A DNA stretch of 64,000 nucleotides from a virus: positions 224,001 to 288,000 of the IMG/VR virus record IMGVR_UViG_3300045988_179268, one strand, 5' to 3'. Positions within the stretch are counted from its first letter, which is position 1. Every line of letters starts with the position of its first letter. Positions 6,088-50,294 of this stretch are shown here, piece after piece. A program made the translations under genes and the position numbers. The notes beneath the pieces were generated by a model that made no database searches, had not been told where the DNA came from, and saw only the letters and a list, made by a program, of their open reading frames with translations.

Positions 6088-6229
6088 AGCGCCCAAATAA
6101 GCGGCGGACTATGTGTTAATCCGCCGCTTATAGTAATATTTGGAATATGCAACGAACGTTCCTCGAAGAAGAACCTTCTTGCACAACAGAAACACCCATA
6201 ACCAGTAACAAGAAAGGGATAACTACAAC

Positions 6230-8410: not shown

Positions 8411-8506
8411 AAAATTTGTGGTACAATTAAATTGAAATAAGATTCATGGAATATAGTTACGGTTCCATGCACAACTAACGCACCTACACGGAAAGGCAAA
8501 AACGCA

Positions 8507-9460: not shown

Positions 9461-10112
9461 CTAAACCTTGTAGTTTCGTTACACTGGGTGTCGCCAACCA
9501 AAAAAGAATAATCAACGCAAGTAACCCAAAGTCAGCTTCACTGCCAGGTAGCCACAATCATAACCAGCAGTGAACAAAGAAGAGGTGTAGTTGTAGCACA
9601 CTCGCTGTTAAAAACCAGTTGAAGTGTCGCAACTACACCTCAAACTATTTATCAACAAAACCGTTAAAGATAAAAGCCGACTATTGTCCACATCTGGGCG
9701 ATGAACATTCAACCAGAACATGAGTAAGCACTCAATGTGAGCAGTCTCTCACCATGAAAACCAATAAATGCATCCAATGCACTAACACAGCTGGGAAGCA
9801 CCTGTGATATACTTTTTGCAAGCGGGATGAACACGCCGCCTGCACCACGGCACCCAAACTATAGGGTGACTATGATATAGTGCGCAAACCTAACCTTAAC
9901 GGGTAGAAGTGTACCCAGAGAATGCCTACAAGCACCTCCGGTACATGGTGGCAGGCGACAAAACCGCATAATAGGCACACTAATGAGGCACCATTCCCCG
10001 GCAGACAACCCGCCAAACGCCAAACCCAGGCAACACGCCTAAAAAGGTGTGGGGAAGCCTCAATGAAAAGCCTGACAACAAACCATAACTAACATGGACA
10101 TAGGAGAGACAC

Positions 10113-16046: not shown

Positions 16047-16189
16047 CACCTCGCCTGTGAGAGACGGGAGAGGTGGATAATCTAAACGGATAGGTGGCAT
16101 CGGTTACCTGTCAAGACCAGGATAACTGGCATCAGACAGTTTGAGGGTCACCGTTAAGGAAAATCCTTAACTCATCTACCGAATGACTC
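16047..16189 (+). ncRNA. scaffold RNA module S1
   Basis: Full copy: hairpin 1 CACCTCGCC..GGGAGAGGTG, AATCTAAACGG, GTCAAGACCAGGA, TGAGGGTCACCGT, hairpin TAAGGA/TCCTTA, terminal ..GAATGACTC. Confidence 0.75.
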
Positions 16190-16232
16190 TGGGTAATACG
16201 GATTAGCGGGGTAATCACCCTTGCCAGGAAGC

Positions 16233-16333
16233 GTATTCTCCGTACACGCGGGGATGACTCCGGTTTCTGCCCCGTAAATGGGTTAGCCTCATGGCACGCC
16301 GCATCGTATTCTCCGTACACGCGGGGATGACTC
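16233..16333 (+). CRISPR. mini-array: two identical 28-nt type I-E-like repeats
   Basis: GTATTCTCCGTACACGCGGGGATGACTC at 16233-16260 and 16306-16333. It forms a 7-bp stem TCTCCGT/GCGGGGA with a 4-nt loop. The spacer between the two repeats is 45 nt; 43 nt separate the S1 end from the first repeat. Confidence 0.75.
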
Positions 16334-16447
16334 TATAAACGGGTGGGCAACATTCGTGTCGCACGTCAAGACCAGGAGAGTTAGGTAACTAGCTTGAGGG
16401 TCACCGCCTAGTGAAACACTAGACCCACCCCGCGCAGGGGATGGCTC
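16334..16447 (+). ncRNA. scaffold RNA module S2 (hairpin 1 replaced by a CRISPR repeat)
   Basis: Starts TATAAACGGG directly after repeat 16306-16333. Carries GTCAAGACCAGGA, TGAGGGTCACCG and CTAGTG/CACTAG, and ends GCGCAGGGGATGGCTC. Confidence 0.7.
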
Positions 16448-16485
16448 CCCGAGTCAGCAACAGGCAACCCAGACATCTTAACCGC

Positions 16486-16568
16486 GTTCCCTATATACGC
16501 GGGATGACTCACAGGCTCACCCTCACATACTCGCTGGGTGGATTCTCCAACATACGTAGGGCTGGCTC
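16486..16568 (+). CRISPR. two degenerate repeats after S2
   Basis: GTTCCCTATATACGCGGGATGACTC (16486-16510) and GATTCTCCAACATACGTAGGGCTGGCTC (16541-16568). Spacers are 38 and 30 nt. Confidence 0.55.
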
Positions 16569-16604
16569 ATACCAGGTGTGTGACACAGATAACACAAAAT
16601 CAGG

Positions 16605-16634
16605 TTGCGTACCATGAAAAACATGTGGTACACT
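16605..16634 (+). promoter_or_regulatory. promoter (TTGCGT -35, TGGTACACT extended -10)
   Basis: -35/-10 spacing is about 18 nt. Homologous promoters sit at 17288, 18203 and 19933. Confidence 0.65.
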
Positions 16635-16718
16635 TGATATATAAGGCGCGGGGGTTTGAGAAAGCCGCCAATGCAAAGCTCATTGATAACTATATAGGGT
16701 AAAAACTATTGAACATAA
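16635..16718 (+). ncRNA. conserved leader L1 upstream of tRNA-Tyr
   Basis: About 84 nt between the promoter and the tRNA, homologous to 18233-18314 (shared ..GCAAAAGCTCATTGA.AAC..TATAG.GTAAA..). Confidence 0.3.
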
Positions 16719-16802
16719 GCCGCAGTGCCTGAGTTTGGAAAAAGGGGCTGACTGTAAATTAGCTGTCGTTCGACTACGGGGGTTCAAATCCCTCCTGCGG
16801 CA
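16719..16802 (+). tRNA. tRNA-Tyr (GTA)
   Basis: Acceptor GCCGCAG/CTGCGGC, anticodon arm GCTGA-CTGTAAA-TTAGC, long variable arm, T arm GGGGG-TTCAAAT-CCCTC. No encoded CCA. Confidence 0.85.
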
Positions 16803-16833
16803 CGCAACACATCATTAAGATGTGTTCTATATA

Positions 16834-16970
16834 CCTCGCCTGTTGGTGAGATGGGAGAGGTAGTAAAAATAAACGGGTAGGCAACAGTGTTTGTCACGCC
16901 AAAACCTGAAAAGCAGGTTATAGCCACAGGGCAATCTGGGCGCTCCTTGACCGTGCAACAAGGGGTCACC
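16834..16970 (+). ncRNA. divergent scaffold-like module S3
   Basis: Keeps hairpin 1 (CCTCGCCTG..GGGAGAGG), AAATAAACGGG and GGGGTCACC, but the middle differs and no repeat follows. Confidence 0.45.
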
Positions 16971-17030
16971 AAAAATCAAAGCACGGGTATGTTCAACACG
17001 TCAGCATAATTGAGTGCTGTGACCTCGACC

Positions 17031-17174
17031 TGCGAGGGGCGGGGAGGTCGAAAAAATAAATGGGCAGGCGGCTACCAGCTATCCTGTCAAGACCAGGAAG
17101 GCTGACGACAGTCAGCTGGAGGGTTACCGTCTAGTGAAACGCTAGACCCAACTCATATAGAGGAAATCCGGCTC
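17031..17174 (+). ncRNA. scaffold RNA module S4
   Basis: Hairpin 1 GACCTC..GAGGTC, AAATAAATGGG, GTCAAGACCAGGA, GGCTGAC/GTCAGCT, GGAGGGTTACCGT, CTAGTG/CGCTAG. Ends ..CCGGCTC. Confidence 0.7.
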
Positions 17175-17190
17175 AGTATATATCAGGGGT

Positions 17191-17260
17191 CACTTTCCCA
17201 TACACGCGAGGATGGCTCCATAGCGGGATGGTTGAAACCTCCCTACATGCGGGATGGCTC
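17191..17260 (+). CRISPR. two degenerate repeats after S4
   Basis: CACTTTCCCATACACGCGAGGATGGCTC (17191-17218) and CCTCCCTACATGCGGGATGGCTC (17238-17260). Intervening segments are short (16 and 19 nt). Confidence 0.5.
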
Positions 17261-17287
17261 CCGCAACAAAATAATACGAAACCAGGC

Positions 17288-17316
17288 TTGCAAACCACAA
17301 AAACATGTGGTACACT
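17288..17316 (+). promoter_or_regulatory. promoter (TTGCAA-17 nt-TACACT with TGG extension)
   Basis: CTTGCAAACCACAAAAACATGTGGTACACT. The -10 hexamer ends 11 nt before the first base of tRNA(UCA). Confidence 0.7.
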
Positions 17317-17327
17317 GGTTTACATAG

Positions 17328-17398
17328 GCCCATCTAGCTTAATGTAAAGCAACAGTCTTCAAAACTGTGAGATGTCGGTTCAAGTCCGGCGGTGGGTG
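17328..17398 (+). tRNA. tRNA with anticodon TCA (UGA-decoding; suppressor or reassignment tRNA)
   Basis: Acceptor GCCCATC/GGTGGGT (two G-U pairs), D arm GCTT-AATGTA-AAGC (short loop with no GG), anticodon arm ACAGT-CTTCAAA-ACTGT, variable GAGAT, T arm GTCGG-TTCAAGT-CCGGC. 71 nt. Confidence 0.7.
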
Positions 17399-17447
17399 CT
17401 TGCAAGTAACAAAACCGGAGTTCTAGCCGAAAGTGGCGTAACTTGCG

Positions 17448-17529
17448 GCGTGTAATGACCACGAAGGCAAGTGGCGAGCCCAGTTAGAATGGGCACGTAA
17501 TAGTAGGGGTCGGTTCCCTTCTACACGCT
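17448..17529 (+). tRNA. non-canonical tRNA-like element (anticodon-like loop GTTAGAA)
   Basis: Perfect 7-bp acceptor GCGTGTA/TACACGC, hairpin GCCCA-GTTAGAA-TGGGC, T-like arm AGGG-GTCGGTT-CCCT. The D region and junctions do not fit a standard cloverleaf. Confidence 0.3.
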
Positions 17530-17534
17530 CTACA

Positions 17535-17674
17535 CTCCTCGTCTGCGAGAGATTGGGAGAGGAGGATAATAAAAACGGGCGCTAACCGCGTCAAGACCAG
17601 GAAAGCCAACGATAGTCAGCTTGAGGGTCACCGTCTAGTGAAACACTAGACCCAGCCCACGTAAGGGGCGGCTC
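17535..17674 (+). ncRNA. scaffold RNA module S5
   Basis: Full copy ending ACGTAAGGGGCGGCTC. It is fused directly to a 5'-truncated tRNA-like sequence. Confidence 0.7.
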
Positions 17675-17728
17675 AAGAGCAGTGCTTTTACACAGCAAAG
17701 GTCGTGGGTTCAAATCCCTCACGAACCA
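17671..17728 (+). pseudogene. 5'-truncated tRNA-like fragment (Val TAC-like)
   Basis: GCTC-AA-GAGC, then TGCT-TTTACAC-AGCA, then GGTCGTGGGTTCAAATCCCTCACGA. No 5' acceptor strand is present. Its D-stem GCTC is the last 4 nt of S5. Confidence 0.35.
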
Positions 17729-17756
17729 CACTTGGTACCCTTTTATAGGGCATCAA

Positions 17757-17829
17757 GTCTCTTTAGCTCAGATAGTAGAGCGCCCGCCTGAAGAGCGGGA
17801 GGTCGCCAGTGCAAGCCTGGCAGGAGACA
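17757..17829 (+). tRNA. tRNA-Phe (GAA)
   Basis: Acceptor GTCTCTT/AGGAGAC, D arm GCTC-AGATAGTA-GAGC, anticodon arm CCCGC-CTGAAGA-GCGGG, T arm GCCAG-TGCAAGC-CTGGC. Confidence 0.85.
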
Positions 17830-17862
17830 CGTAAGCCCACCTATTTTTTCGGTGGTGCATTA

Positions 17863-18004
17863 CCTCTCGCCTGTGAGAGACGGGAGAGAGTGAAAACGGA
17901 CGGGCGGCTTCGGTTGCCTGTCAAGACCAGGAGAATTAACTTCGGTTAATTTGAGGGTTACCGTCTAGTAAAATACTTAGACCCACCCATGTATGGGAAG
18001 GCTC
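17863..18004 (+). ncRNA. scaffold RNA module S6
   Basis: Full copy with hairpins ATTAAC/GTTAAT and CTAGTA/TACTTAG. Ends ATGTATGGGAAGGCTC. Confidence 0.7.
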
Positions 18005-18037
18005 ATCCAGTCTACAGCTAAGAAAGCGCGCGGTGCA

Positions 18038-18064
18038 GTATTTCTTATATACACGGGATGGCTC
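18038..18064 (+). CRISPR. single degenerate repeat, 33 nt after S6
   Basis: GTATTTCTTATATACACGGGATGGCTC. The spacer 18005-18037 is exactly 33 nt. Confidence 0.55.
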
Positions 18065-18202
18065 TCTTACAGTCTGGTTCCTTTTTTGCGCCCATGTGGG
18101 CTGACTGGGAATTACTTATATGAAGAAAGAAGAGATGTGGCATCACTAACATGCACTGCTTTATCTCTGTTTTTTCAGTGACACAGATAACACAAAATCG
18201 AG

Positions 18203-18232
18203 TTGCAAACCACGAAAAACATGTGGTACACT
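18203..18232 (+). promoter_or_regulatory. promoter (TTGCAA -35, TGGTACACT)
   Basis: GTTGCAAACCACGAAAAACATGTGGTACACT, a paralog of 17288-17316. Confidence 0.7.
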
Positions 18233-18314
18233 TTATATATGAGACGTGAGGGCTTGAAAGAGTCCCCGACGCAAAAGCTCATTGAAAACCTTATAGAGTA
18301 AACTATTTAATCAA
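18233..18314 (+). ncRNA. conserved leader L2 upstream of tRNA-Tyr
   Basis: Homologous to L1 (16635-16718). Confidence 0.3.
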
Positions 18315-18398
18315 GCCGTTGTATCCAAGTGGTCAAAGGAAACTGTCTGTAAAACAGTCGCTATCGAAGCTTCGTGGGTTCGACTCCCTCCGGCGGCA
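18315..18398 (+). tRNA. tRNA-Tyr (GTA)
   Basis: Acceptor GCCGTTG/CGGCGGC (G-U pairs), anticodon arm ACTGT-CTGTAAA-ACAGT, long variable arm, T-loop TTCGACT. Confidence 0.8.
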
Positions 18399-18469
18399 CG
18401 AGACACATTACTAGAATGTGTTTAGCTACATCATCTATACGTGCTATAGTTGTTGCAGTAAATATTTTT

Positions 18470-18540
18470 GGCGTACTAGTTTAGTGGTAAAACCTCAGTC
18501 TTCCAAACTGATGATACGGGTTCGATTCCCGTGTACGCCT
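18470..18540 (+). tRNA. tRNA-Trp (CCA)
   Basis: Acceptor GGCGTAC/GTACGCC, D arm GTTT-AGTGGTA-AAAC, anticodon arm TCAGT-CTTCCAA-ACTGA, T arm ACGGG-TTCGATT-CCCGT. Confidence 0.85.
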
Positions 18541-18544
18541 CTAT

Positions 18545-18683
18545 GCTCCTCGCCTGTGAGAGACGGGAGAGGAGCTAAATCTAAACGGACACTCACGTGT
18601 CAAGACCAGGAGAGTTGGGCAACCTACTCAAGGGTTACCGTCAAAGTAAAGCTTTGGCACGCTCCGCATAAGGTCGATGACTT
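18545..18683 (+). ncRNA. scaffold RNA module S7
   Basis: Begins 5 nt after tRNA-Trp. Short hairpin 2 ACAC/GTGT and hairpin CAAAGT/GCTTTG. Ends GCATAAGGTCGATGACTT. Confidence 0.7.
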
Positions 18684-18751
18684 AGAGTAAGTATCTACAT
18701 GTTCTAAGTCATCGTGCGGGATTCGCGTCTCACTAAATCCTGCGTGTCTAA

Positions 18752-18777
18752 GGATTCTCCTTCTCATTAGAGAGACT
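18752..18777 (+). CRISPR. single highly degenerate repeat
   Basis: GGATTCTCCTTCTCATTAGAGAGACT keeps ATTCTCC and a TCTC/GAGA stem. Confidence 0.35.
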
Positions 18778-18818
18778 ATAGATGCGTTTTACATAATCTG
18801 AAATAACTAACACTTTAA

Positions 18819-18900
18819 GCGCTTGTGGCGGAATTGGCAGACGCGGCAGACTTAGAATCTGTTGTCAGCAGACGTGTGGGTTCGAGTCCCACCAGGCGCA
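18819..18900 (+). tRNA. tRNA-Leu (TAG)
   Basis: Acceptor GCGCTTG/CAGGCGC, anticodon arm GCAGA-CTTAGAA-TCTGT, long variable arm, T arm GTGGG-TTCGAGT-CCCAC. Confidence 0.85.
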
Positions 18901-18930
18901 CTTGGTGTCCACAAGTGCATGTGGGTGCCC

Positions 18931-19052
18931 GCTTCCGTATCCAAGCTAGGTTAAGGGGAGCGTCTTTCATGAGCCTTCTGCACATAACGGCTATGGGAGC
19001 GCTTGCGGTGCATGAGAGTGCCCGCGCGCCGGTTCAAATCCGGTCGGAAGCA
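18931..19052 (+). tRNA. atypical 122-nt tRNA-like RNA
   Basis: Perfect acceptor GCTTCCG/CGGAAGC, T arm GCCGG-TTCAAAT-CCGGT, D-like TCCAAGCTAGGTTAAGGGGA. The interior has two long hairpins and I found no standard 7-nt anticodon loop. Confidence 0.35.
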
Positions 19053-19083
19053 CGTAACGCCACCTACTATGGTGGCTTGTTAC

Positions 19084-19227
19084 TCACCTCGCCTATGAGA
19101 GATGGGAGAGGTGAATAATCTAAACGGACACTAACCATGTCAAGACCAGGAGAACTAGCTTACGCTGGTTAGAGGGTCACCGTCTAACAAAATGTTTAGA
19201 CCCGCCTCGTATTTATGGGGTAGGCTT
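19084..19227 (+). ncRNA. scaffold RNA module S8
   Basis: Full copy with hairpins AACTAGC/GCTGGTT and CTAACA/TGTTTAG. Ends TATGGGGTAGGCTT. No repeat follows. Confidence 0.7.
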
Positions 19228-19327
19228 TCAGCCTCATTAGGTAACCTATTGAGGCACCCTTATTGCAATAGGGGAGCCTTCGGGCTTCTGGCTTTTATCA
19301 CTCATTCTTTTGCGAGATTGAGTGTTG

Positions 19328-19339
19328 GTGTGGTATACT
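19328..19339 (+). promoter_or_regulatory. promoter-like extended -10 (GTGTGGTATACT)
   Basis: Variant of the motif, about 20 nt upstream of tRNA-Leu(TAA). Confidence 0.45.
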
Positions 19340-19358
19340 TATCATGCTTACTCTTTAG

Positions 19359-19438
19359 GCGCTTGTGGCGGAACTGGCAGACGCGGCGGACTTAAAATCC
19401 GCTTCTTCGGAGTGTGGGTTCGAGTCCCACCTGGCGCA
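19359..19438 (+). tRNA. tRNA-Leu (TAA)
   Basis: Acceptor GCGCTTG/CTGGCGC (one T-T mismatch), anticodon arm GCGGA-CTTAAAA-TCCGC, variable arm, T arm GTGGG-TTCGAGT-CCCAC. Confidence 0.8.
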
Positions 19439-19468
19439 CGCAACCACCCTTAACTGGGAGGTTTATAT

Positions 19469-19542
19469 TCCCTTGTAGCTCAATTGGCAGATGCGCCCGA
19501 CTGTTAATCGGGAGGTTACTGGTTCGAGTCCAGTCTGGGGAG
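19469..19542 (+). tRNA. tRNA-Asn (GTT)
   Basis: Acceptor TCCCTTG/CTGGGGA (one mismatch), anticodon arm CCCGA-CTGTTAA-TCGGG, T arm ACTGG-TTCGAGT-CCAGT. Confidence 0.8.
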
Positions 19543-19594
19543 CTTACGTCACTTATGCGTGGCGTTGATACCTTAGCTTTTTTGTTAAGGTTCT

Positions 19595-19670
19595 GGTCTG
19601 TTAGCTCAGTGTTGGTTAGAGCACCGCCCTGTCACGGCGGAGGCCGCGGGTTCGAGCCCCGTACAGACCG
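19595..19670 (+). tRNA. tRNA-Asp (GTC)
   Basis: Acceptor GGTCTGT/ACAGACC, anticodon arm CCGCC-CTGTCAC-GGCGG, T arm GCGGG-TTCGAGC-CCCGT. Confidence 0.9.
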
Positions 19671-19691
19671 CGTATAGTTTTTTTGGCTATG

Positions 19692-19831
19692 CCTCTCGCC
19701 TGTGAGAGACGGGAGAGAGTAAAAACGGACAGGTAGCTTCGGTTACCTGTCAAGACCAGGATAGCGGGGTAACCTGCTTGAGGGTCACCGTCTGACAAAA
19801 TGTTAGACCCAGCCCACGTAGGGGATGGCTC
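19692..19831 (+). ncRNA. scaffold RNA module S9
   Basis: Full copy with hairpins AGCGGG/CCTGCT and CTGACA/TGTTAG. Ends CCCACGTAGGGGATGGCTC. Confidence 0.75.
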
Positions 19832-19864
19832 CTTGGACTCGAAGTTTTGACGAATAGGGAGTCC

Positions 19865-19892
19865 GTTTTCCCAGCACACGCGGGAGTGGCTC
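19865..19892 (+). CRISPR. single repeat, 33 nt after S9
   Basis: GTTTTCCCAGCACACGCGGGAGTGGCTC (28 nt). The spacer 19832-19864 is exactly 33 nt. Confidence 0.65.
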
Positions 19893-19932
19893 ACCGTGAC
19901 CTCCTGTGTGATACAGGTAACATAAAAACGGC

Positions 19933-19962
19933 TTGCATACCATAGAAACTATATGGTACACT
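19933..19962 (+). promoter_or_regulatory. promoter (TTGCAT -35, TGGTACACT)
   Basis: GCTTGCATACCATAGAAACTATATGGTACACT upstream of the Thr-Ala-Lys tRNA block. Confidence 0.65.
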
Positions 19963-20029
19963 TGCTATATATGGTTCGGGGAAACCTGAAAGACCGATAC
20001 GCTATTTCTTAATTGAATGAATTTTTTTT

Positions 20030-20103
20030 GCCTCCTTAGCTCAGTTGGTTAGAGCATCTGTCTTGTAAACAGAGGGTCGCCGGTTCGACTCCGGCAGGAG
20101 GCT
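20030..20103 (+). tRNA. tRNA-Thr (TGT)
   Basis: Acceptor GCCTCCT/AGGAGGC, anticodon arm TCTGT-CTTGTAA-ACAGA, T arm GCCGG-TTCGACT-CCGGC. Confidence 0.9.
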
Positions 20104-20139
20104 CGCTAAAGTAGATAGTTTTACTGTTTGCTTTTATGA

Positions 20140-20212
<73 letters not shown>

Positions 20213-20242
20213 CTCACACGCCTGTTGCAGGTTGTGTGTTAA

Positions 20243-20315
20243 GCGCCTTTAGCTCAGTCGGTAGAGCAGTGGACTTTTAATCCTCGGGTCGCGGGTTCGA
20301 GCCCCGCAGGGCGCA
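20243..20315 (+). tRNA. tRNA-Lys (TTT)
   Basis: Acceptor GCGCCTT/AGGGCGC, anticodon arm GTGGA-CTTTTAA-TCCTC (one mismatch), T arm GCGGG-TTCGAGC-CCCGC. Confidence 0.8.
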
Positions 20316-20552
20316 CGTAGCATGAAGGGATGTAGCTAATCCTTTCGTAATACACCGGATAAACACTATTCAGAAGGTCGTAGGTTAAAATCCTGCCACG
20401 TGCCACATTGCACGTGTAGCTCGGTGTTATAAGAGCGTCTGGACGGTGCCGGTTTAAGCCATACACAGGGGAAGTGACCTACACACTTCCATAGGGGTAG
20501 CGCCCCGGCTGTCTTGTAGGATAAGGGTACCTCTTAGCGGGGGTGCTCTCAT

Positions 20553-20628
20553 GGTCTGTTAGCTCAGTGTTGGTTAGAGCACCGCCCTGTCACGGCGGAG
20601 GTCGCGGGTTCAAGTCCCGTACAGACCG
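20553..20628 (+). tRNA. tRNA-Asp (GTC), second copy
   Basis: Near-identical to 19595-19670. T-loop is TTCAAGT. Confidence 0.9.
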
Positions 20629-20666
20629 CTTATATGGCGCACTGACCGCCTAAATAGTCAGTCTAA

Positions 20667-20740
20667 GCCCTTGTAACTCAGCTGGTTAGAGTGCCGCTCT
20701 GATAAGGCGGATGCCGGTGGTTCAAGTCCACCCAAGGGCA
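20667..20740 (+). tRNA. tRNA-Ile (GAT)
   Basis: Acceptor GCCCTTG/CAAGGGC, anticodon arm CCGCT-CTGATAA-GGCGG, T arm GGTGG-TTCAAGT-CCACC. Confidence 0.9.
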
Positions 20741-20742
20741 CT

Positions 20743-20814
20743 GTGTGTGAAGCCGGATAGCGAGGCGCTTGCTTGTGGCGCAAGTAGTAGCGGGTGCGAT
20801 TCCCGTCACACACC
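20743..20814 (+). tRNA. tRNA-His (GTG)
   Basis: Acceptor GTGTGTG/CACACAC with discriminator C, anticodon arm CTTGC-TTGTGGC-GCAAG, T arm GCGGG-TGCGATT-CCCGT. Confidence 0.8.
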
Positions 20815-20816
20815 CC

Positions 20817-20891
20817 GCTCCCCTAGTTCAGTCTGGATAGAACGCCGTGCTACGAACGCGGAGGTGGCAGGTTCAAATCCTGCGGGGAGCA
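20817..20891 (+). tRNA. tRNA-Arg (ACG)
   Basis: Acceptor GCTCCCC/GGGGAGC, anticodon arm CCGTG-CTACGAA-CGCGG, T arm GCAGG-TTCAAAT-CCTGC. Lies 2 nt after tRNA-His. Confidence 0.9.
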
Positions 20892-20924
20892 CGTAACAGC
20901 ACCTATTATGGTAGTGTGTTATAT

Positions 20925-21080
20925 ACCTCGCCTGTGAGAGACGGGAGAGGTGGTAAATCTAAACGGATAGGTGGCATCGGCTACCTGTCAAGACCAGGAT
21001 GGCGGGGCAACCTGCTTGAGGGTCACCGTCTAGTGAAACACTCAGACCCAACCCACATAAGGGAAAACGTAAGGTGAATC
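20925..21080 (+). ncRNA. scaffold RNA module S10
   Basis: Full copy nearly identical to S1 in its 5' half. The terminal part is extended (..CACATAAGGGAAAACGTAAGGTGAATC). Confidence 0.7.
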
Positions 21081-21121
21081 TATTTTGCGGCTTGACCCGG
21101 TATTAAGCCTAGTCAGGAAGA

Positions 21122-21205
21122 TTTTTCCCTACGCATGTGAGGCTGGCTCTACTCAGCCTAACATGCGTAGGCGACGTTTTCTCCGTACACGCGAGGGGAT
21201 GGCTC
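21122..21205 (+). CRISPR. two repeats after S10
   Basis: TTTTTCCCTACGCATGTGAGGCTGGCTC (21122-21149) and GTTTTCTCCGTACACGCGAGGGGATGGCTC (21176-21205). The 26-nt spacer is largely the reverse complement of the first repeat. Confidence 0.55.
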
Positions 21206-21288
21206 CGGCTAGGATACGCCCTTCAAGGCGGCGCTACTTTCTTTACATACATAGAAAGTCAGCTTTTATCAATATGCTCACAACATAT

Positions 21289-21361
21289 GCCCCCATCGTC
21301 TAGATGGTTAGGATACTACCCTTTCAAGGTAGAGATGCGGGTTCGAGTCCCGTTGGGGGTA
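21289..21361 (+). tRNA. tRNA-Glu (TTC)
   Basis: Acceptor GCCCCCA/TGGGGGT, anticodon arm CTACC-CTTTCAA-GGTAG, T arm GCGGG-TTCGAGT-CCCGT. Confidence 0.85.
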
Positions 21362-21496
21362 CGCAAGCTTCAAGAGTTATATTTGTAGCTTTTGGAAGCT
21401 GGCATGGGGTCATGCTGTTTTTATAGTTATGGTCACAATTTAACCTTTCGTTACATCGAGTAGCGGCTCGCCGTCTTGTTGGTTGCCGCTATTCTT

Positions 21497-21570
21497 ATCC
21501 CAGTAGCTCAGTGGATAGAGCGCCCGCCTCCTAAGCGGGGTCGTCACAGGTTCGACTCCTGTCTGGGATA
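21497..21570 (+). tRNA. tRNA-Arg (CCT)
   Basis: Acceptor ATCCCAG/CTGGGAT, anticodon arm CCCGC-CTCCTAA-GCGGG, T arm ACAGG-TTCGACT-CCTGT. Confidence 0.8.
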
Positions 21571-21604
21571 CTTTTAGGTAAACCTGTTTTTTAGGTTTAC
21601 CGTT

Positions 21605-21677
21605 GCCTCCTTAGCTCAGCGGATAGAGTACCCGATTCCGAGTCGGGTGGTCACAGGTTCGATTCCTGTAGGAGGCG
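21605..21677 (+). tRNA. tRNA-Arg (CCG)
   Basis: Acceptor GCCTCCT/AGGAGGC, anticodon arm CCCGA-TTCCGAG-TCGGG, T arm ACAGG-TTCGATT-CCTGT. Confidence 0.85.
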
Positions 21678-21678
21678 C

Positions 21679-21750
21679 GTCCCCGTGGTCTAATCGGGAG
21701 GATGCCGCTCTCTCAAGGCGGCGATGCGGGTTCGAGTCCCGTCGGGGGTA
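21679..21750 (+). tRNA. tRNA-Glu (CTC)
   Basis: Acceptor GTCCCCG/CGGGGGT, anticodon arm CCGCT-CTCTCAA-GGCGG, T arm GCGGG-TTCGAGT-CCCGT. Lies 1 nt after tRNA-Arg. Confidence 0.8.
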
Positions 21751-21874
21751 CGCTCATGCGCGGCTTTTTGTTGCGTGTGTTGTGGTGACTTTCGGTAGTT
21801 ACCTTTTTTGTACGGCTTGGGCTGGGTTTGGTTTTTCCTCACTTTTGCCTTACTCAGGTTTCTGGTCGTGTTTC

Positions 21875-21947
21875 GCGCTTTTAGCTCAGTTGGTAGAGCA
21901 AGGGACTCTTAATCCCTGGGTCGCGGGTTCGAGCCCCGCAGGGCGCA
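21875..21947 (+). tRNA. tRNA-Lys (CTT)
   Basis: Acceptor GCGCTTT/AGGGCGC, anticodon arm AGGGA-CTCTTAA-TCCCT, T arm GCGGG-TTCGAGC-CCCGC. Confidence 0.9.
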
Positions 21948-21976
21948 CGTAGCACATTCCTTTTGGGTGTGTTTAC

Positions 21977-22128
21977 TCACCTCGCCTGTGAGGGACTGGG
22001 AGAGGTGGCTAATCTAAACGGATGGGTAGCTTTGATTGCCTGTCAAGACCAGGAGAATCTGCCTTTGGTGGGTTTGAGGGTCACCGTCTAATAAAATATT
22101 AGACCCAACCCTGTGCAGGGGATGGCTC
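21977..22128 (+). ncRNA. scaffold RNA module S11
   Basis: Full copy (hairpin 1 variant ..TGTGAGGGACTGGGAGAGG, hairpin CTAATA/TATTAG). Ends TGTGCAGGGGATGGCTC. Confidence 0.75.
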
Positions 22129-22147
22129 GACAAAAAAGTCAGGCGGT

Positions 22148-22175
22148 GTTTTCCCTGTATACGCGGGGATGACTC
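22148..22175 (+). CRISPR. single repeat after S11
   Basis: GTTTTCCCTGTATACGCGGGGATGACTC. It is 19 nt after the S11 end, and 31 nt separate it from the 5' end of tRNA-Arg(TCT). Confidence 0.65.
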
Positions 22176-22206
22176 ACCGCTAATATGTACAATTCCATAC
22201 CTTTTT

Positions 22207-22279
22207 GCCCTAGTAGCTCAGGGGATAGAGCAGTCGCCTTCTAAGCGATTGGTCGCAGGTTCGAATCCTGCCTGGGGCA
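22207..22279 (+). tRNA. tRNA-Arg (TCT)
   Basis: Acceptor GCCCTAG/CTGGGGC, anticodon arm GTCGC-CTTCTAA-GCGAT, T arm GCAGG-TTCGAAT-CCTGC. Confidence 0.85.
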
Positions 22280-22306
22280 CGCTATATGCCTCAAGGTGTG
22301 TCGCAA

Positions 22307-22456
22307 CACCTCGCCTGTGAGGGACTGGGAGAGGTGGTTAATCTAAACGGGTGGGTGGCTTTGGTTGCCTGCCAAGACCAGGAAAGCTGGCTTCGGTCAG
22401 TTTGAGGGTCACCGTCAAAGTAAAACTTTGGCTCATCTACCGCATAAAGTGAATGG
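22307..22456 (+). ncRNA. scaffold RNA module S12
   Basis: Full copy with hairpins AGCTGGC/GTCAGTT and CAAAGT/ACTTTG. The terminal part is S1-like (CTCATCTACCGCATAAAGTGAATGG). Confidence 0.7.
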
Positions 22457-22496
22457 GAAATGTGGGTTGGCGAGGTGTTTATCCTTGTCAATAAGG

Positions 22497-22638
22497 ATTT
22501 TCCCCGTACACGCGGGGATGGCTCCTGGACCCTCAAACTTGCTAGAGTAGAGCACGTATTTTCCCCGTACACGCGGGGATGGCTCTAACGTCAAGCCTAT
22601 TAGCGTTTACGTTTTCCCTTGTATGCGTGGGGTGACTC
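22497..22638 (+). CRISPR. three-repeat mini-array after S12
   Basis: ATTTTCCCCGTACACGCGGGGATGGCTC twice (22497-22524, 22558-22585) with a 33-nt spacer, then GTTTTCCCTTGTATGCGTGGGGTGACTC (22611-22638) after 25 nt. 31 nt separate the last repeat from tRNA-Glu. Confidence 0.75.
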
Positions 22639-22669
22639 ACAATAACCCTTTTATATATTCACAACATAT

Positions 22670-22743
22670 GCCCCCGTGGTCTAATTGGTCAGGATGCCAC
22701 TTTCTCAAGGTGGGTGGTACGGGTTCGAGTCCCGTCGGGGGTA
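22670..22743 (+). tRNA. tRNA-Glu (CTC), second copy
   Basis: Acceptor GCCCCCG/CGGGGGT, anticodon arm CCACT-TTCTCAA-GGTGG, T arm ACGGG-TTCGAGT-CCCGT. Confidence 0.8.
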
Positions 22744-22775
22744 CGTTCATGCGCGGTTTTTGTTGCGTGTGTTTT

Positions 22776-22848
22776 GCGCTTTTAGCTCAGTTGGTAGAGC
22801 AACGGACTCTTAATCCGTGGGTCGCCGGTTCGAGTCCGGCAGGGCGCA
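22776..22848 (+). tRNA. tRNA-Lys (CTT), second copy
   Basis: Acceptor GCGCTTT/AGGGCGC, anticodon arm ACGGA-CTCTTAA-TCCGT, T arm GCCGG-TTCGAGT-CCGGC. Confidence 0.9.
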
Positions 22849-22877
22849 CGTAGCACATTCCTTTTGGGTGTGTTTAC

Positions 22878-23029
22878 TCACCTCGCCTGTGAGGGACTGG
22901 GAGAGGTGGCTAATCTAAACGGATGGGTAGCCTTTGGGTTGCCTGTCAAGACCAGGAAAATTAGCTTAGGCTGATTCGAGGGTCACCGTCTGGCAAAATG
23001 GCAGACCCACCCTTTGTAGGGGGCGGCTC
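22878..23029 (+). ncRNA. scaffold RNA module S13
   Basis: Near-duplicate of S11 in its 5' half. Hairpins AATTAGC/GCTGATT and CTGGCA/TGGCAG. Ends TTGTAGGGGGCGGCTC. Confidence 0.75.
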
Positions 23030-23062
23030 AGTGTTTGAGAATGAGGGTTGCGCCCTCAGCGA

Positions 23063-23076
23063 GTATTTCCCGTAAA
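23063..23076 (+). CRISPR. truncated repeat, 33 nt after S13
   Basis: GTATTTCCCGTAAA matches only the repeat 5' half. The spacer 23030-23062 is exactly 33 nt. Confidence 0.4.
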
Positions 23077-23188: not shown

Positions 23189-23224
23189 ACGCCCTTGCTG
23201 GTTTTTGCCGGTGAGGGCGTTTTT
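23189..23224 (+). terminator. rho-independent terminator closing the tRNA/scaffold region
   Basis: ACGCCCT..AGGGCGT stem followed by TTTT. Confidence 0.65.
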
Positions 23225-23274
23225 GTTGTATAATTGGTGTACCACATATTTTTTAGTTGAAAGGTTTTCATAGA

Positions 23275-24309
23275 ATGTTTGTTTGCGAGGATGTGTCCCC
23301 TGTTGGTTCTGGCAAGGTTCAGTCTATTTCTTTGGGGGAGTCATTTTTGCCTGGTGACGTGATGGATGTATTGAATCCGTCTATTCCGAGTGCGGCGGCG
23401 CGTATGGTATTGATTTATAAGCGTGATGTTGTCTCTGCTGGTGCGCAGTTGGTGGGCGTTTTCACTGTTTCTGCCGACCCTGCTACTTTTGCGGGTGGTG
23501 TTGATGGTCAGGGTATTATTCCAGGTGTTGCCTCTGGTTCGCTTGTTGAGCGTGTCGTTGAGAGTGTTCCTGTGCAGGGTGGTGATTACGCCTCACATGC
23601 GTTGAAGGTTGCGTCCTGGTTGTCTAATTCTGGTGTGCCGCTGGGTTATGGTGGTGATTTGCGCAATGGTTTTGCTTTTACTGCGTTTGAATCTGCTGAG
23701 GGCGCATGTGCTGTGCCTGATGCGTTTGAGTTTTTGGATGCGGCGGGTGTGTCTGTCCCTTGGTATAACGAGGGTAACTATTTCGGGTACACTGTTTCTG
23801 GTGTTAGTAAGATTAGTTCCCTTAAGGGTGTGGGTTCTGTGTTGGGCGACCTTGGTGACGTTGGTGTGGACTCCCGCGCGCTGAGTCAGGGGGTTGATGG
23901 TGCTGGCGACAATGCTTATGTCGCGTGGTTGCTGTGGGGTGTTGATGATGGTGGTCGTGTTGGGGATGTGCATCTTGTGGCTGGTGACCCGACGCTAAAT
24001 GGGTTCCCGACTGTGGGGTTGCCGTTTATTAAGGGCGCTCCTCAGCTTGTGGGTGTCCCGGTTGAGGAGTATGGTTATCGTTTGGTGACGAAAATGTTCA
24101 CTAATTTCACTTCTGTTTTTGTCACTATTAAGTCCCCTTTGTTTAATGCTAATCGTGTTTGTTATGATGCTGGTAAGGGTTTGTATTCTTTGCCTGTTGT
24201 GGTGACTTTGGGGTCTGAGTCGCCATTGTGGGTGCCTGGCGATTTGGGGGCGCGTATGCGCTATGTTAAGGCTGTTTTGGGGCGCGATGGGGCTTTAAAT
24301 ATCTTGTAA
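23275..24309 (+). CDS. G/V-rich hypothetical protein, paralog 1
   Basis: ATG 23275 after GAAAGG (track 23257..24309). The C-terminal motif NxxRxxYDxxxGLYSLPVVV is shared with the next two ORFs. The coding strand is strongly G+T rich, so stop codons are rare in every frame and the ORF length itself is weak evidence. Confidence 0.55.
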   Translation: MFVCEDVSPVGSGKVQSISLGESFLPGDVMDVLNPSIPSAAARMVLIYKRDVVSAGAQLVGVFTVSADPATFAGGVDGQGIIPGVASGSLVERVVESVPVQGGDYASHALKVASWLSNSGVPLGYGGDLRNGFAFTAFESAEGACAVPDAFEFLDAAGVSVPWYNEGNYFGYTVSGVSKISSLKGVGSVLGDLGDVGVDSRALSQGVDGAGDNAYVAWLLWGVDDGGRVGDVHLVAGDPTLNGFPTVGLPFIKGAPQLVGVPVEEYGYRLVTKMFTNFTSVFVTIKSPLFNANRVCYDAGKGLYSLPVVVTLGSESPLWVPGDLGARMRYVKAVLGRDGALNIL

Positions 24310-24474
24310 ATAGCCTTTTTGGGGAGCTTGTCATACTTTTGTGTGGCAGGCTCCTTTTTGTGTGTTTTCCGGGTTTTGGGCGGGTTGGTGTGGTAGACTG
24401 GTGGTGGGGTTGCGTCGGGTCTTGACGTTGCCCCCTTTTTTCTATCTTTTTCTACTATTTTTTTGGAGGTTGTT

Positions 24475-25455
24475 GTGGCTTTTGATTGGTTGAGGGGCAT
24501 TTTTGGTGGTTCTGGTGATGGTGAGCCTGTTGAGGGTGGTGCTTTTAGGGAGTCGGGGGTTTCTGATGCTGATGTGATTGCTGAGTTGGAGGCTTCGTTG
24601 GGTGCGCCGTCTGGTGGTGTTGATGTTTCGCGTCTGGTTAGTTGTGAGTTTGGGTTGCCGGGGCATGTGTTGTTTTTGTTTAAGCCTGTGGGTGGTGGGT
24701 TTGTTTTGGATGGTGTGGTGTGTGTTGGTGTGAGTGGTCGTGGTGTTGGTGGTGTTGGTAATGGTCGTGGGGTGGTTTGTTTTGGGCAGGAGCCTGTGTT
24801 GGAGGTGTTGGGTGGTTCTAGGGTTTATTCTGTGGAGGATAATTTTAGTGAGGTTGGGCGTGGGTTGTATGGTGAGGTTTTGAGTGAGGGGTGTTTGTTT
24901 GTTGGGGTTGGTGAGTCTGGTGGTTTGGATTTGTTGAGGGTTGTTGAGTCGGATGGTGTTGATTTTATTTTGGGTGACCCGTCGTTGGTGGGTTTGGAGG
25001 TGGAGTCTTTTGATGGGGGTGAGTTTGTGTGTGTGATTGCGCATAATGTGCGTGTTGATTTGTCTGCTTCGGTTTCTGTTGGTGAGGCTGTTGGTTCTGT
25101 GGGTGATGTGGGTTCTGTGGCGCGTGAGTATGTTGGTGTTGAGGGTGCTATGGTCGGTTGGTTCTGTTGGTGGGCTTCGGCGGCTGGCGTTGAGTGGGGG
25201 TATGTTTTGGGTGACCCGCGTGGGGGTGGTTCGCCGGTGATGGATGTTCCGCTTGGCGGTATTTCGGGGTTGTTTAGTGGGCTTATTGCTGGTGTTGGCA
25301 GTATTGAGGATGTTGGTGTTAGGGTTGCTGGTTCGTTTAGGAATACTCGTTTCGGTAATGTTGAGTGGGTTGCTCCTTTGTATGATGATGGTCGTGCTTA
25401 TTATGATGAGGCGGCGCAGTTGTATGCGATGCCGGTGGTGACTGTTCTGCATTAG
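24475..25455 (+). CDS. G/V-rich hypothetical protein, paralog 2
   Basis: GTG 24475, 5 nt after GGAGG (track 24463..25455). Ends LYDDGRAYYDEAAQLYAMPVVTV like its neighbours. Extreme G+T composition. Confidence 0.5.
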   Translation: MAFDWLRGIFGGSGDGEPVEGGAFRESGVSDADVIAELEASLGAPSGGVDVSRLVSCEFGLPGHVLFLFKPVGGGFVLDGVVCVGVSGRGVGGVGNGRGVVCFGQEPVLEVLGGSRVYSVEDNFSEVGRGLYGEVLSEGCLFVGVGESGGLDLLRVVESDGVDFILGDPSLVGLEVESFDGGEFVCVIAHNVRVDLSASVSVGEAVGSVGDVGSVAREYVGVEGAMVGWFCWWASAAGVEWGYVLGDPRGGGSPVMDVPLGGISGLFSGLIAGVGSIEDVGVRVAGSFRNTRFGNVEWVAPLYDDGRAYYDEAAQLYAMPVVTVLH

Positions 25456-25577
25456 CGCCTTTACCCGCTTTCGGGGGTATGGGTTTTGCGCTGTGGGGTG
25501 TTAGAATAAGGTGTGTTGCTTGTCCCCTTTTTGGGGTTCGGTGATGCACCTTATTCTTTTTTGTTTTTGGGAGGTTT

Positions 25578-26585
25578 TTGTTGTCTTCGTCGTTCATGAA
25601 GGACCCGAATGTTGCTAGTTCGCCTGTTGATGGTCAGGTGTACAATATTGTTCCTTTGGAGGATTTGAATGAGTTTGACCGGGTGGATACGAGTCATTTC
25701 GTGTCTGAGCCTACGTTGGATTCGTTGGATGGGTTGGCTAATTTTGCGTTAGGTTCATCGTCTGAGTTCCTGTTCTTGTTTGAGGATTTGGACGGGGTTC
25801 CGGTTCTTTCTGGGATTGTGTTTGCGGTGACTACGCCTAACGGTGTTGGTCGAGCTATCTTGCCTGCGCATGACCGTATTGTGTCTAGCGTGTGGGATGA
25901 GGTTTGTAAGCGTTCCTCTTCAACTTCGCGTGAGCGTCTGTCTGTGGCGTGTGCCGAGGTACTGGTTGAGCGTGGCACAGCGTTCATGTCTGCTTATACT
26001 GATGCGTTGCCTATTGGTGTTGCTAGGAAGTTGCGTGGTAAGAATAATGGGCGTGAGGTGACAGCCCAGTATGTGTTGGATAACTATGGTTTGATGCCTC
26101 AAGATGCTGTGAAAGCACATGCTGTTGGGGTGTCTGCTGACTTCATGGTTTCGGATGCGGTGAAGGTTCTTTATCGGAAGGATTCTGAGGCTATTAACCC
26201 GGTGTCTGCGGGTCGTCCTGGGTGGGCGCATGTGGGTTGGTTGCAGTGGCGTATGAGTCCGACTACAGGTCTTGAGTTAGGATTGGGCTTTGGTGCTCCT
26301 TTTGGGGAGGCTGATTCTTTGCCTTACGTGCCGCTGGTTCCCGTCTTTAAAGACACCTTTAAGCGTATGGTTATGGCGTATTCTCCTTCTGAGGGTGCCG
26401 TCGGTGCTACATTTATGTCCATCATTCAGGATGGCACGTTTAAGGGTAACGGTGACGAGTTCACTATTGGTGGCGCACTTTATAATGACGGCAGGTACGC
26501 TTATGATTCCGCTTCGGGGGTTTATGCTATGCCTATTATTATTGAACAGCCGCGCGCCACGGCTAAGGTGTTCATGGTGAACTAG
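25578..26585 (+). CDS. hypothetical protein, paralog 3
   Basis: TTG start after GGGAGG. More ordinary composition. Ends LYNDGRYAYDSASGVYAMPIIIE. Confidence 0.65.
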   Translation: MLSSSFMKDPNVASSPVDGQVYNIVPLEDLNEFDRVDTSHFVSEPTLDSLDGLANFALGSSSEFLFLFEDLDGVPVLSGIVFAVTTPNGVGRAILPAHDRIVSSVWDEVCKRSSSTSRERLSVACAEVLVERGTAFMSAYTDALPIGVARKLRGKNNGREVTAQYVLDNYGLMPQDAVKAHAVGVSADFMVSDAVKVLYRKDSEAINPVSAGRPGWAHVGWLQWRMSPTTGLELGLGFGAPFGEADSLPYVPLVPVFKDTFKRMVMAYSPSEGAVGATFMSIIQDGTFKGNGDEFTIGGALYNDGRYAYDSASGVYAMPIIIEQPRATAKVFMVN

Positions 26586-50292: not shown

Positions 50293-50294
50293 AG

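Follow-up and report, generated by a model that had tools for sequence, protein, structure and literature searches.

The stretch analyzed here, which we call the window, is 64,000 nucleotides (nt) long and covers positions 224,001-288,000 of the IMG/VR virus record IMGVR_UViG_3300045988_179268, which derives from a genome of ~300-400 kb. Its gene content is phage-like, and the related IMG/VR contigs, of 306-360 kb, are viral. Between 16.0 and 23.2 kb, the plus strand carries a non-coding operon with 25 transfer RNA (tRNA) genes. A structured RNA element of ~150 nt, referred to below as the scaffold, is present in 13 copies between the tRNAs, and ten of these copies have repeats like those of CRISPR arrays (short palindromic repeats, clustered and spaced at regular intervals) on their 3' side. 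We describe these units and their relatives in a clade of huge phages, and discuss the probable role of the units as mini-arrays that borrow host Cas proteins.

Scaffold RNAs and repeat units in the tRNA operon

The scaffold is recognized by the pattern AAGACCAGGA-N-GGGTYACCG, which has 12 matches in the window compared with 0.00 expected; the 13th copy is divergent and was found with a covariance model (R1). Its six-helix structure is 96.6% paired over 120 copies and has compensatory changes in 26 of 35 pairs, with a covariation score of 0.44 compared with 0.23 for shuffles and ≤0.07 for slid controls. Many of the pairs are G-U, indicating that the scaffold is a plus-strand RNA. In the long form of the unit, a small hairpin (CCC-ACGTA-GGG) follows the core, and a linker of ~60 nt then leads to the first repeat; the linker is homologous to the part of a type I-E leader nearest the repeat. 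In the short form, the small hairpin is joined straight to the handle GATGGCTC. Every scaffold had been said in a preliminary description of this DNA to end in the 3' half of a repeat (..ACGTAGGGGATGGCTC); this is true of most copies, not of every one, and comparison with the long form explains it by a fusion of the scaffold hairpin to the first repeat. The promoter-like motif TTGC..N17..TACACT (repeat family D18) occurs five times in the window. Among 141 scaffolds, 71 start 0-39 nt 3' of a tRNA on the same strand, and some others start directly 3' of a promoter-like site. Rfam was searched at its gathering thresholds, over the region with E≤5 and on one unit with E≤10; none of these searches gave a scaffold match, and what they returned was mainly tRNAs. 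The sole CRISPR match, CRISPR-DR37, was below threshold and on the opposite strand.

The repeat is 28 nt long with the consensus GTTTTCCCCGTACACGCGGGGATGGCTC. We counted ~15 repeats or remnants in the window, indel-bearing copies included, all of them on the plus strand at 16.2-23.1 kb, within the tRNA operon and 3' of scaffold copies. The best copies read GTATTCTCCGTACACGCGGGGATGACTC (at 16233 and 16306) and ATTTTCCCCGTACACGCGGGGATGGCTC (at 22497 and 22558). A degenerate repeat pattern has 7 matches in the window versus 0.00 expected, and the handle GGRKGRCTC has 15 versus 3.3, with 14 of the 15 on the plus strand at 16.2-22.7 kb. Four spacers are exactly 33 nt (18005-18037, 19832-19864, 22525-22557 and 23030-23062) and another 33-nt stretch lies at 21206-21238; this length is found in 4-5 of ~14 window spacers, and the remaining ones, 14-45 nt long, include spacers of 14, 19, 21, 25 and 26 nt. 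On re-reading, all sequences and coordinates quoted in the preliminary description were correct, including those of the four 33-nt spacers. Its ten array-bearing scaffolds also stand, while its ~16 repeats or remnants come to ~15 in our recount and its range of 16-45 nt for the other spacers keeps the upper end and extends down to 14 nt. The features are as follows, with bit scores from the scaffold covariance model (CM).

16047-16201, +, scaffold copy 1, long form (CM R1, 149.8 bits), starting ~10 nt 3' of a promoter-like TTGCTT-N17-TACACT
16221-16232, +, leader-repeat junction motif TTGCCAGGAAGC, abutting the first repeat (by comparison with bacterial I-E leader ends)
16233-16260, +, repeat GTATTCTCCGTACACGCGGGGATGACTC, 3 mismatches to the clade consensus (also by fold)
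16306-16333, +, repeat of the same sequence as the 16233 copy; the intervening 45 nt hold a degenerate repeat
16309-16449, +, scaffold copy 2, short form, lacking helix P1, ending GGGGATGGCTC (88.8 bits), fused directly 3' of the repeat at 16306
16483-16510, +, degenerate repeat CGCGTTCCCTATATACGCGGGATGACTC, 3' of a 35-nt spacer (sequence and pattern match)
16541-16568, +, degenerate repeat GATTCTCCAACATACGTAGGGCTGGCTC, 10 mismatches
16832-16971, +, divergent scaffold copy (37.8 bits, E 2e-8)
17021-17172, +, scaffold copy (126.6 bits)
17191-17218, +, repeat CACTTTCCCATACACGCGAGGATGGCTC (consensus comparison)
17240-17260, +, 5'-truncated repeat TCCCTACATGCGGGATGGCTC, 3' of a 21-nt spacer (sequence and pattern match)
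17535-17676, +, scaffold copy, short form (132.5 bits), followed by a tRNA-like fragment and lacking a full repeat
17863-18006, +, scaffold copy, short form (142.3 bits)
18005-18037, +, 33-nt spacer, no target found in the target search
18038-18064, +, repeat with a 1-nt deletion, GTATTTCTTATATACACGGGATGGCTC (sequence and pattern match)
18546-18685, +, scaffold copy lacking an array (122.5 bits)
19085-19228, +, scaffold copy lacking an array (125.6 bits)
19692-19833, +, scaffold copy, short form (146.8 bits)
19832-19864, +, 33-nt spacer, C-initial, shared with the syntenic array of relative L239
19865-19892, +, repeat GTTTTCCCAGCACACGCGGGAGTGGCTC (consensus comparison)
20924-21072, +, scaffold copy, long form (151.4 bits)
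21108-21121, +, leader-repeat junction motif CCTAGTCAGGAAGA (by comparison with bacterial I-E leader ends)
21122-21149, +, degenerate repeat (consensus comparison)
21176-21205, +, repeat with a 2-nt insertion, followed by the C-initial 33-nt spacer 21206-21238
21978-22130, +, scaffold copy, short form (144.9 bits)
22148-22175, +, repeat, 3' of a 19-nt spacer (consensus comparison)
22307-22457, +, scaffold copy, long form (147.9 bits)
22497-22524, +, repeat with 1 mismatch to the consensus
22525-22557, +, 33-nt spacer, C-initial, no match in the collected loci or IMG/VR
22558-22585, +, repeat with 1 mismatch to the consensus
22611-22638, +, repeat GTTTTCCCTTGTATGCGTGGGGTGACTC, 3' of a 25-nt spacer (sequence and pattern match)
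22879-23031, +, scaffold copy, short form (148.0 bits)
23030-23062, +, 33-nt spacer, shared with the syntenic arrays of relatives L253 and L201
23063-23079, +, truncated repeat GTATTTCCCGTAAATAT (sequence)
23189-23220, +, strong intrinsic-terminator-like hairpin (14 bp and a T run), ending the tRNA and array region

Among GenBank phages, no relative of the window was found by megablast of 20 kb, blastn of the region or tblastn of three proteins, and the matches were solely to tRNA, generic ATPase or transposase genes. Related contigs of 160-360 kb came from pattern scans of IMG/VR and of metagenomes, among them the 306,861-bp contig IMGVR_UViG_3300045988_174689, which is syntenic with the window at 70-90% identity. 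Loci collected for comparison carry labels such as L140, L153 and L253. With the covariance model, another 190 scaffold copies turned up in 100 loci, and none in 28 bacterial loci. In its clade of 250-410-kb phage contigs, the element is present in hundreds of copies.

The geometry of the arrays was measured in 113 scaffold-bearing loci of the clade (878 kb), with repeats taken within 7 mismatches of the consensus. The scaffold strand holds 166 repeats and the opposite strand 1. Each unit contains 1-5 repeats, and their start-to-start spacing peaks at 61 nt (28+33), the value seen in 41 of 70 pairs. Handle-to-handle spacing forms two classes, 58-63 nt in 82 cases and 42-52 nt in 34, and at least one of the short spacers derives from a 32-nt spacer by an internal deletion. 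Relatives differ in spacer content at conserved positions, and certain window spacers recur at syntenic array positions of close relatives; compared with the arrays of several relatives, those of the window appear older and in a more advanced state of decay. We collected 69 unique clade spacers with a handle 5' and a repeat 3', of which 58 are 33 nt long and 49 (71%) begin with C. The latter suggests that the C is a 29th repeat base derived from the protospacer adjacent motif (PAM), like the G of E. coli.

Type I-E features of the repeat family

The repeat folds into a 4-nt flank, a 7-bp stem, a 4-nt loop and a 6-7-nt tail, and its bracket string is identical to that of the E. coli I-E repeat; the sequences agree at 18 of 28 positions in an ungapped comparison with the E. 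coli repeat. Repeats of type I-E are 28-29 nt long, with a GC-rich 7-bp stem, a 4-nt loop and a 3' tail of 7-8 nt that forms the 5' handle of the mature RNA, and the phage repeat agrees with this layout. Transitions in the stem preserve pairing in 118 cases and break it in 45. We scanned genomes for bacterial repeats with the pattern CCCCGN{5,7}CGGGGATGRCTC, and the matches listed are mostly singletons. Among these matches, 28-nt actinobacterial repeats with a 61-nt period differ from the phage consensus by 4-7 mismatches and come from arrays of Streptoalloteichus, Streptosporangium, Nocardia, Nocardiopsis, Streptomyces, Kitasatospora and Actinomadura. In the Streptoalloteichus repeat, the 15-nt 3' end ACGCGGGGATGGCTC is identical to that of the phage repeat. 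The Actinomadura keratinilytica array (L140) is directly adjoined by cas3 and cse1 (Cse1 Pfam E 2.6e-100). Since Cse1 is the signature of subtype I-E, this related array indicates that the phage repeat family is genuinely I-E. Slices of 8 kb around the bacterial arrays L072 and L073 contained no cas genes.

The boundary between leader and repeat is also shared with bacteria. The junction motif GTCAGGAAG (GTCAG[GC]AAG) lies directly 5' of the first repeat in 6 bacterial arrays, whose leaders end ..CAGGTCAG(G/C)AAGT, and the phage units end ..CCTAGTCAGGAAGT in the same register before the first repeat. On the scaffold strand of the phage loci, 15 of 22 exact occurrences of GTCAG[GC]AAG abut a repeat. 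Upstream of this motif, the phage and bacterial sequences differ. The repeat is thus type I-E-like by five tests, namely its fold, its similarity to actinobacterial repeats, the cse1 neighbor of a related array, the leader junction and the clade geometry. The type I-E-like layout noticed in the preliminary description is borne out by these tests.

The repeat and leader family, together with a secreted protein that carries a sortase-like anchor, suggests an actinobacterial host, as far as sequence can indicate one. This 615-residue protein (10113-11960, +) has Pro/Thr-rich linkers, a C-terminal ..AKTG.. motif, a hydrophobic stretch and a basic tail; its sortase-type anchor hints at a Gram-positive or actinobacterial host. 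The window also encodes an HU/IHF-like DNA-binding protein at 61304-61654 (-) (Pfam Bac_DNA_binding, 1.4e-14). In the E. coli I-E system, IHF guides spacer integration at the leader, and the phage protein may be relevant for this reason.

Spacer targets and competing explanations

Protospacers outside arrays were found in the same phage clade for 9 of the 69 clade spacers, a small sample, with 0-4 mismatches. The match is perfect (33/33) and across samples for a spacer in L173 and a site in L253, whose homologous site in the window is 26322-26345. At positions -2 and -1 of the protospacer, AA is present for 8 of the 9 spacers and at 7 of 8 distinct sites, and most targets have C at +1, in line with the AAG-type PAM of I-E arrays, whose last base is carried over into the array; the same search with shuffled (5x) and reversed spacers gave 0 matches. 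Homologous sites in the carrier's own genome have 2-6 mismatches. The targets include structural-type open reading frames (ORFs), a tRNA-Tyr gene and a scaffold copy, and are often near arrays. The conflict between phages through host Cascade that the preliminary description had offered as one possibility is independently supported by these data, in that spacers of the relatives match related phages while the sites in their own genomes are more mismatched.

Two groups of these sites are of interest in themselves. The scaffold copy of a related phage is the source of one phage-borne spacer (flank TAAA followed by CGG..), and two spacers are directed at a tRNA-Tyr gene in related phages; the positions tied to these scaffold and tRNA-Tyr spacers are L189 1837-1869, the spacers of L220 and L223, and L179 5445-5476. 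Directly 3' of the tRNA operon, three paralogous ORFs of 330-350 residues occupy 23257-26585 (+), and the third (25578-26585) is targeted in relatives by two different phage-borne spacers.

We consider it probable that the units are cas-less I-E mini-arrays of an actinobacterial family, carried in the tRNA operon of a huge phage and using host Cas proteins against related phages. The observations behind this reading are the repeat's identity, fold and period, the homologous leader junction, the C-initial spacers, the AA-flanked protospacers in related phages, the higher mismatch of sites in the carrier's own genome, the structured scaffold RNA and the lack of type I cas genes in the window and of Cas3, Cse1 and Cas1 matches in 1.13 Mb of relatives' loci. 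Expression, Cas6e processing, Cascade loading, interference and the host origin of the Cas proteins are steps that we infer. The units would be transcribed on the plus strand together with the tRNAs from the repeated phage TTGC-N17-TACACT promoters, each as a ~150-nt structured leader RNA, a bacterial-type I-E leader-repeat junction motif and 1-5 repeats of 28 nt. Cleavage by host Cas6e at the foot of each repeat hairpin would release CRISPR RNAs (crRNAs) of ~61 nt with the 5' end AUGGCUCC; each would comprise the 8-nt handle AUGGCUC(C), a guide of 32-33 nt and the hairpin at its 3' end. Loaded into host Cascade, the crRNAs would guide Cas3 to protospacers 3' of 5'-AA(C) in related, co-infecting phages, and host Cas1-Cas2 acting at the leader-repeat junction would produce the spacer turnover. 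A compatible host array would pair a ..CGGGGATGGCTC repeat with the GTCAGGAAG leader end and cas genes.

Several observations weigh against this interpretation. Many window repeats are degenerate, truncated or indel-bearing, and the window spacers range from 14 to 45 nt. The window's own spacers have no target in the collected loci, where they match syntenic array positions or nothing, and exact IMG/VR scans with 22-mers of the spacers at 22525-22557 and 18005-18037 gave no match; the spacer and PAM searches proposed in the preliminary description thus yielded AA-flanked targets in related phages for the spacers of relatives, and none for those of the window. Its proposed comparison with bacterial CRISPR repeats likewise returned relatives in the I-E family and, among the matches listed, no identical repeat in a bacterial genome. 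Compensatory covariation in the repeat stem is not above the independent-column expectation. A full repeat is absent from 124 of 221 clade scaffolds, the other 97 carrying one to five. Finally, the survey of this phage for cas genes covered 64 kb of its ~300-400-kb genome. With only four canonical spacers and many degenerate or truncated repeats, the window arrays are partly decayed, and some may be relics or decoys.

The units could also act as RNA anti-CRISPRs that shield the phage from host I-E immunity, either as Racr-type decoys (single repeat units) that soak up Cas6e and Cascade subunits or as Cracr-type, crRNA-like regulators with short pseudo-spacers, which would steer Cascade onto a host cas promoter and repress it. 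We regard this as rather unlikely for the units as a whole. It would fit the many degenerate units, the class of short spacers seen both in the 42-52-nt spacing and in the window, and the scaffolds, more than half of the total, that end in a pseudo-repeat and handle only. In a published I-E Cracr array, the pseudo-spacers measure 21-24 nt and a repeat lacks 1 nt (10.1101/2024.10.29.618823). However, spacers of the dominant class have the canonical length of 33 nt, with PAM-flanked protospacers known from related phages, and the derivation of a short spacer from a 32-nt one by internal deletion suggests decay rather than design. The decoys raised in the preliminary description are plausible for degenerate and short-spacer units; such a role can coexist with mini-arrays that use host Cas proteins.

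It is improbable that the window arrays are functionless, decaying relics of once-active mini-arrays or of host-array fragments captured by recombination. The damaged repeats, the lack of a target for any window spacer and the inheritance of several window spacers at syntenic positions in close relatives are what such relics would show. However, every unit lies on the tRNA strand, hairpin and handle are perfect in the best copies, the stem transitions favor pairing (118 versus 45) and spacer content varies between relatives at conserved positions.

We give similarly little weight to the idea that type I-E or derived Cas proteins are encoded by the phage itself beyond the window, in which case the arrays would belong to a CRISPR-Cas system that is complete within the phage. 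Such systems are frequent in huge phages (PMC7162821), and the window is only ~1/5 of the genome, with relatives of 250-410 kb. Against this, PADLOC and Pfam found among the 56 ORFs of the window no type I Cas domain and thus none of the genes that accompany I-E arrays (cas3, cse1, cse2, cas7, cas5, cas6e, cas1 and cas2), and tblastn with actinobacterial Cas3, Cse1 and Cas1 queries found nothing in 1.13 Mb of relatives' loci, a search of low power because the loci cluster around scaffolds. A Cas3-based locus search in IMG/VR, also of low power, gave no pattern match. The arrays are moreover small, scattered and leader-bearing, as in the cas-less mini-arrays of viruses.

While the absence of type I cas genes from the 64 kb agrees with the preliminary description, two TnpB/Cas12f-like ORFs had been missed there, at 6230-7384 (+; 384 residues) and 40110-41711 (+; 533 residues). 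Both have intact RuvC-type D/E/D motifs and a Cas12f TNB domain, and the 533-residue protein is kept at 75-96% identity in >100 huge-phage contigs of the clade, sometimes in two copies. In relative L153, the two TnpB copies, at 4784-6334 (-) and 10001-11599 (+), bracket DNA whose orientation is the reverse of that in the window, and the DNA homology shared by the copies ends 6 nt past the stop codon (..AAATTGATAC). We rejected these ORFs as partners of the arrays on the basis of this IS605-type homology boundary, the inversion and the lack of an adjoining scaffold, the scaffolds being 9-17 kb from both. They are typical, in sequence, of ordinary IS605-type elements that would carry their own 3' guide RNA. 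Downstream of the 384-residue gene, 7385-8500 comprises ~1.1 kb with no convincing ORF and a repeat-like stretch GTTCCACTCACGCGGGAACCTGATGACTC near 7665-7695; this segment may hold the guide RNA of that element or another RNA. The earlier suggestion of guides for a phage-encoded effector is not supported, as its sole candidates are these self-contained insertion elements. It is accordingly very improbable that scaffold and guide form an omega-RNA- or single-guide-RNA-like guide for the TnpB/Cas12f-like nucleases, as in a TnpB-to-type V intermediate: the layout, with a guide-like stretch 3' of a long structured scaffold, is that of an omega-RNA, and the nucleases are intact and conserved, but the L153 copies behave as IS605-type elements carrying a 3' omega-RNA, no scaffold adjoins either ORF, and the repeat sequence, 28+33 period, leader junction and C-initial spacers are I-E hallmarks.

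Since most scaffolds have no array, the scaffold must have a function beyond that of an array leader. Possibilities are processive antitermination, RNA stability or processing, and recruitment of Cas proteins. As a tentative proposal, of low probability in our estimate, the scaffold might be a structured phage RNA of a new class, acting as a portable front end for crRNA production, either as a processive antiterminator of the long untranslated tRNA and crRNA operon or as a platform for host Cas6e/Cascade/Cas1-Cas2. Part of the same tentative proposal is its placement, always at the 5' end of an RNA unit, right after a promoter or 20-39 nt after a tRNA, together with its strong covariation, its dozen or more copies per genome and its repeat-like terminal hairpin. 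Isolated scaffold copies also occur far from the tRNA region (L004 10425-10592; L009 3817-3984, -; L022 1722-1868, -; L005 3989-4152). They lie upstream of protein genes, for example that of a 432-residue membrane protein, and are kept between two different huge phages.

Neighboring genes, known systems and significance

The tRNA operon contains further unusual features, all on the plus strand. A tRNA at 17328-17399 has the anticodon TCA, which would read UGA (selenocysteine, SeC, in ARAGORN), and a truncated tRNA-like fragment (17670-17729; 28.9 bits) lies directly 3' of a scaffold copy. At 18931-19052, a tRNA-model match of 35.7 bits over 122 nt corresponds to a tRNA with a ~50-nt insertion that ARAGORN did not call. 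Between tRNA genes, 20352-20458 weakly resembles the Y RNA-like family YrlA, scoring 28.1 bits (E 0.0075) compared with a gathering score of 69. Elsewhere in the window are a T4 Rnl1-type RNA ligase gene (2859-4061) and duplicated MoxR-like AAA_5 ATPase genes (30665-32125 and 42058-45490, +), one of which is paired with a DUF2201/VWA-like protein bearing a long acidic insert rich in Gly/Ser/Asn/Asp. Seven paralogous ORFs of 305-568 residues run from 45679 to 55002 (+), with repeat-rich middles and the C-terminal motif ..C.C.LW/YYPL.., and gave no Pfam matches.

The closest known parallel is in the Saccharolobus portogloboviruses SPV1 and SPV2, whose cas-less mini-arrays have host-like leaders and target sister viruses (Medvedeva et al. 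2019; PMC6858448). Both systems have short arrays with no cas genes nearby (1-2 spacers there, 1-5 here) and repeats and a leader that resemble those of cellular arrays. In both, the spacers (here those of the relatives) match closely related viruses, the orthologous sites in the own genome are mutated and the targets are often near the arrays. SPV1 and SPV2 are, however, 20-kb archaeal viruses with Sulfolobales repeat classes, whereas the arrays described here are type I-E, belong to a bacterial huge phage and form at least 12 units per genome, located in a tRNA operon and linked to a ~150-nt covarying RNA that is also found array-free.

Mini-arrays and single repeat units of phages and prophages with spacers against related phages were described by Faure et al. 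(2019), as summarized in PMC6858448 and PMC11656645. On that account, they share with our units the phage-borne spacer-repeat units that target related phages; phage mini-arrays are described there as lacking leader regions (PMC6858448), unlike the units here, which carry the bacterial I-E leader-repeat junction motif. Al-Shayeb et al. (2020) reported arrays in huge phages that are compact, with a median of six repeats; the repeats are host-like, genes for interference and adaptation are missing, and the spacers of the cas-less arrays are aimed at other phages (PMC7162821). Apart from the number of repeats, these properties have counterparts here, the phage targets being those of the relatives' spacers; compared by description, our arrays differ in being dispersed units of 1-5 repeats among tRNAs, each behind a structured RNA. 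Viral Cracr arrays and crRNA-like regulatory RNAs include I-E examples with short pseudo-spacers (10.1101/2024.10.29.618823). The phage units resemble Cracr and Racr elements in their repeat-like units, I-E examples, short pseudo-spacers, degenerate repeats and multiplexed arrays, and differ from Cracr, whose short pseudo-spacers are partially complementary to a host cas (or toxin) promoter, in that the main spacer class has the full length of 33 nt and PAM-flanked phage targets. With the I-E arrays of Actinomycetota, such as those of Actinomadura keratinilytica (L140) and Streptoalloteichus tenebrarius (L053), they share the 28-nt repeat, the 61-nt period, the hairpin, the GGGGATGG handle and the GTCAG[GC]AAG leader end. 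In contrast to those arrays, no cas operon adjoins them in the window or in the relatives' loci, the 5' half of the repeat is AT-richer, and the phage scaffold, not found in the 28 bacterial loci, replaces or extends the upstream leader.

Mini-arrays with which viruses fight one another (PMC6858448, PMC11656645) and arrays of huge phages that lack cas genes (PMC7162821) are thus already known. New here are the host-type leader-repeat junction in bacteriophage mini-arrays, the many units in a tRNA operon and the large covarying leader RNA. To our knowledge, archaeal viruses are the only ones in which cas-less mini-arrays have been validated as exploiting host CRISPR systems against sister viruses. 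Bacteriophage mini-arrays have been thought unable to acquire spacers canonically because they were described as leaderless. The arrays of this clade show three hallmarks of canonical adaptation, namely a host-type leader-repeat junction, a strict 33-nt ruler and a PAM-derived first base, implying canonical adaptation into a phage genome. The clade is also a natural system for testing phage-phage warfare through host Cascade, and the Rfam-unmatched ~150-nt covarying RNA and its linkage to tRNAs point to an undescribed route of crRNA expression or processing. If the scaffold does act as a front end, these phages would carry natural polycistronic tRNA-crRNA arrays, an adaptive, host-powered weapon against sister phages.

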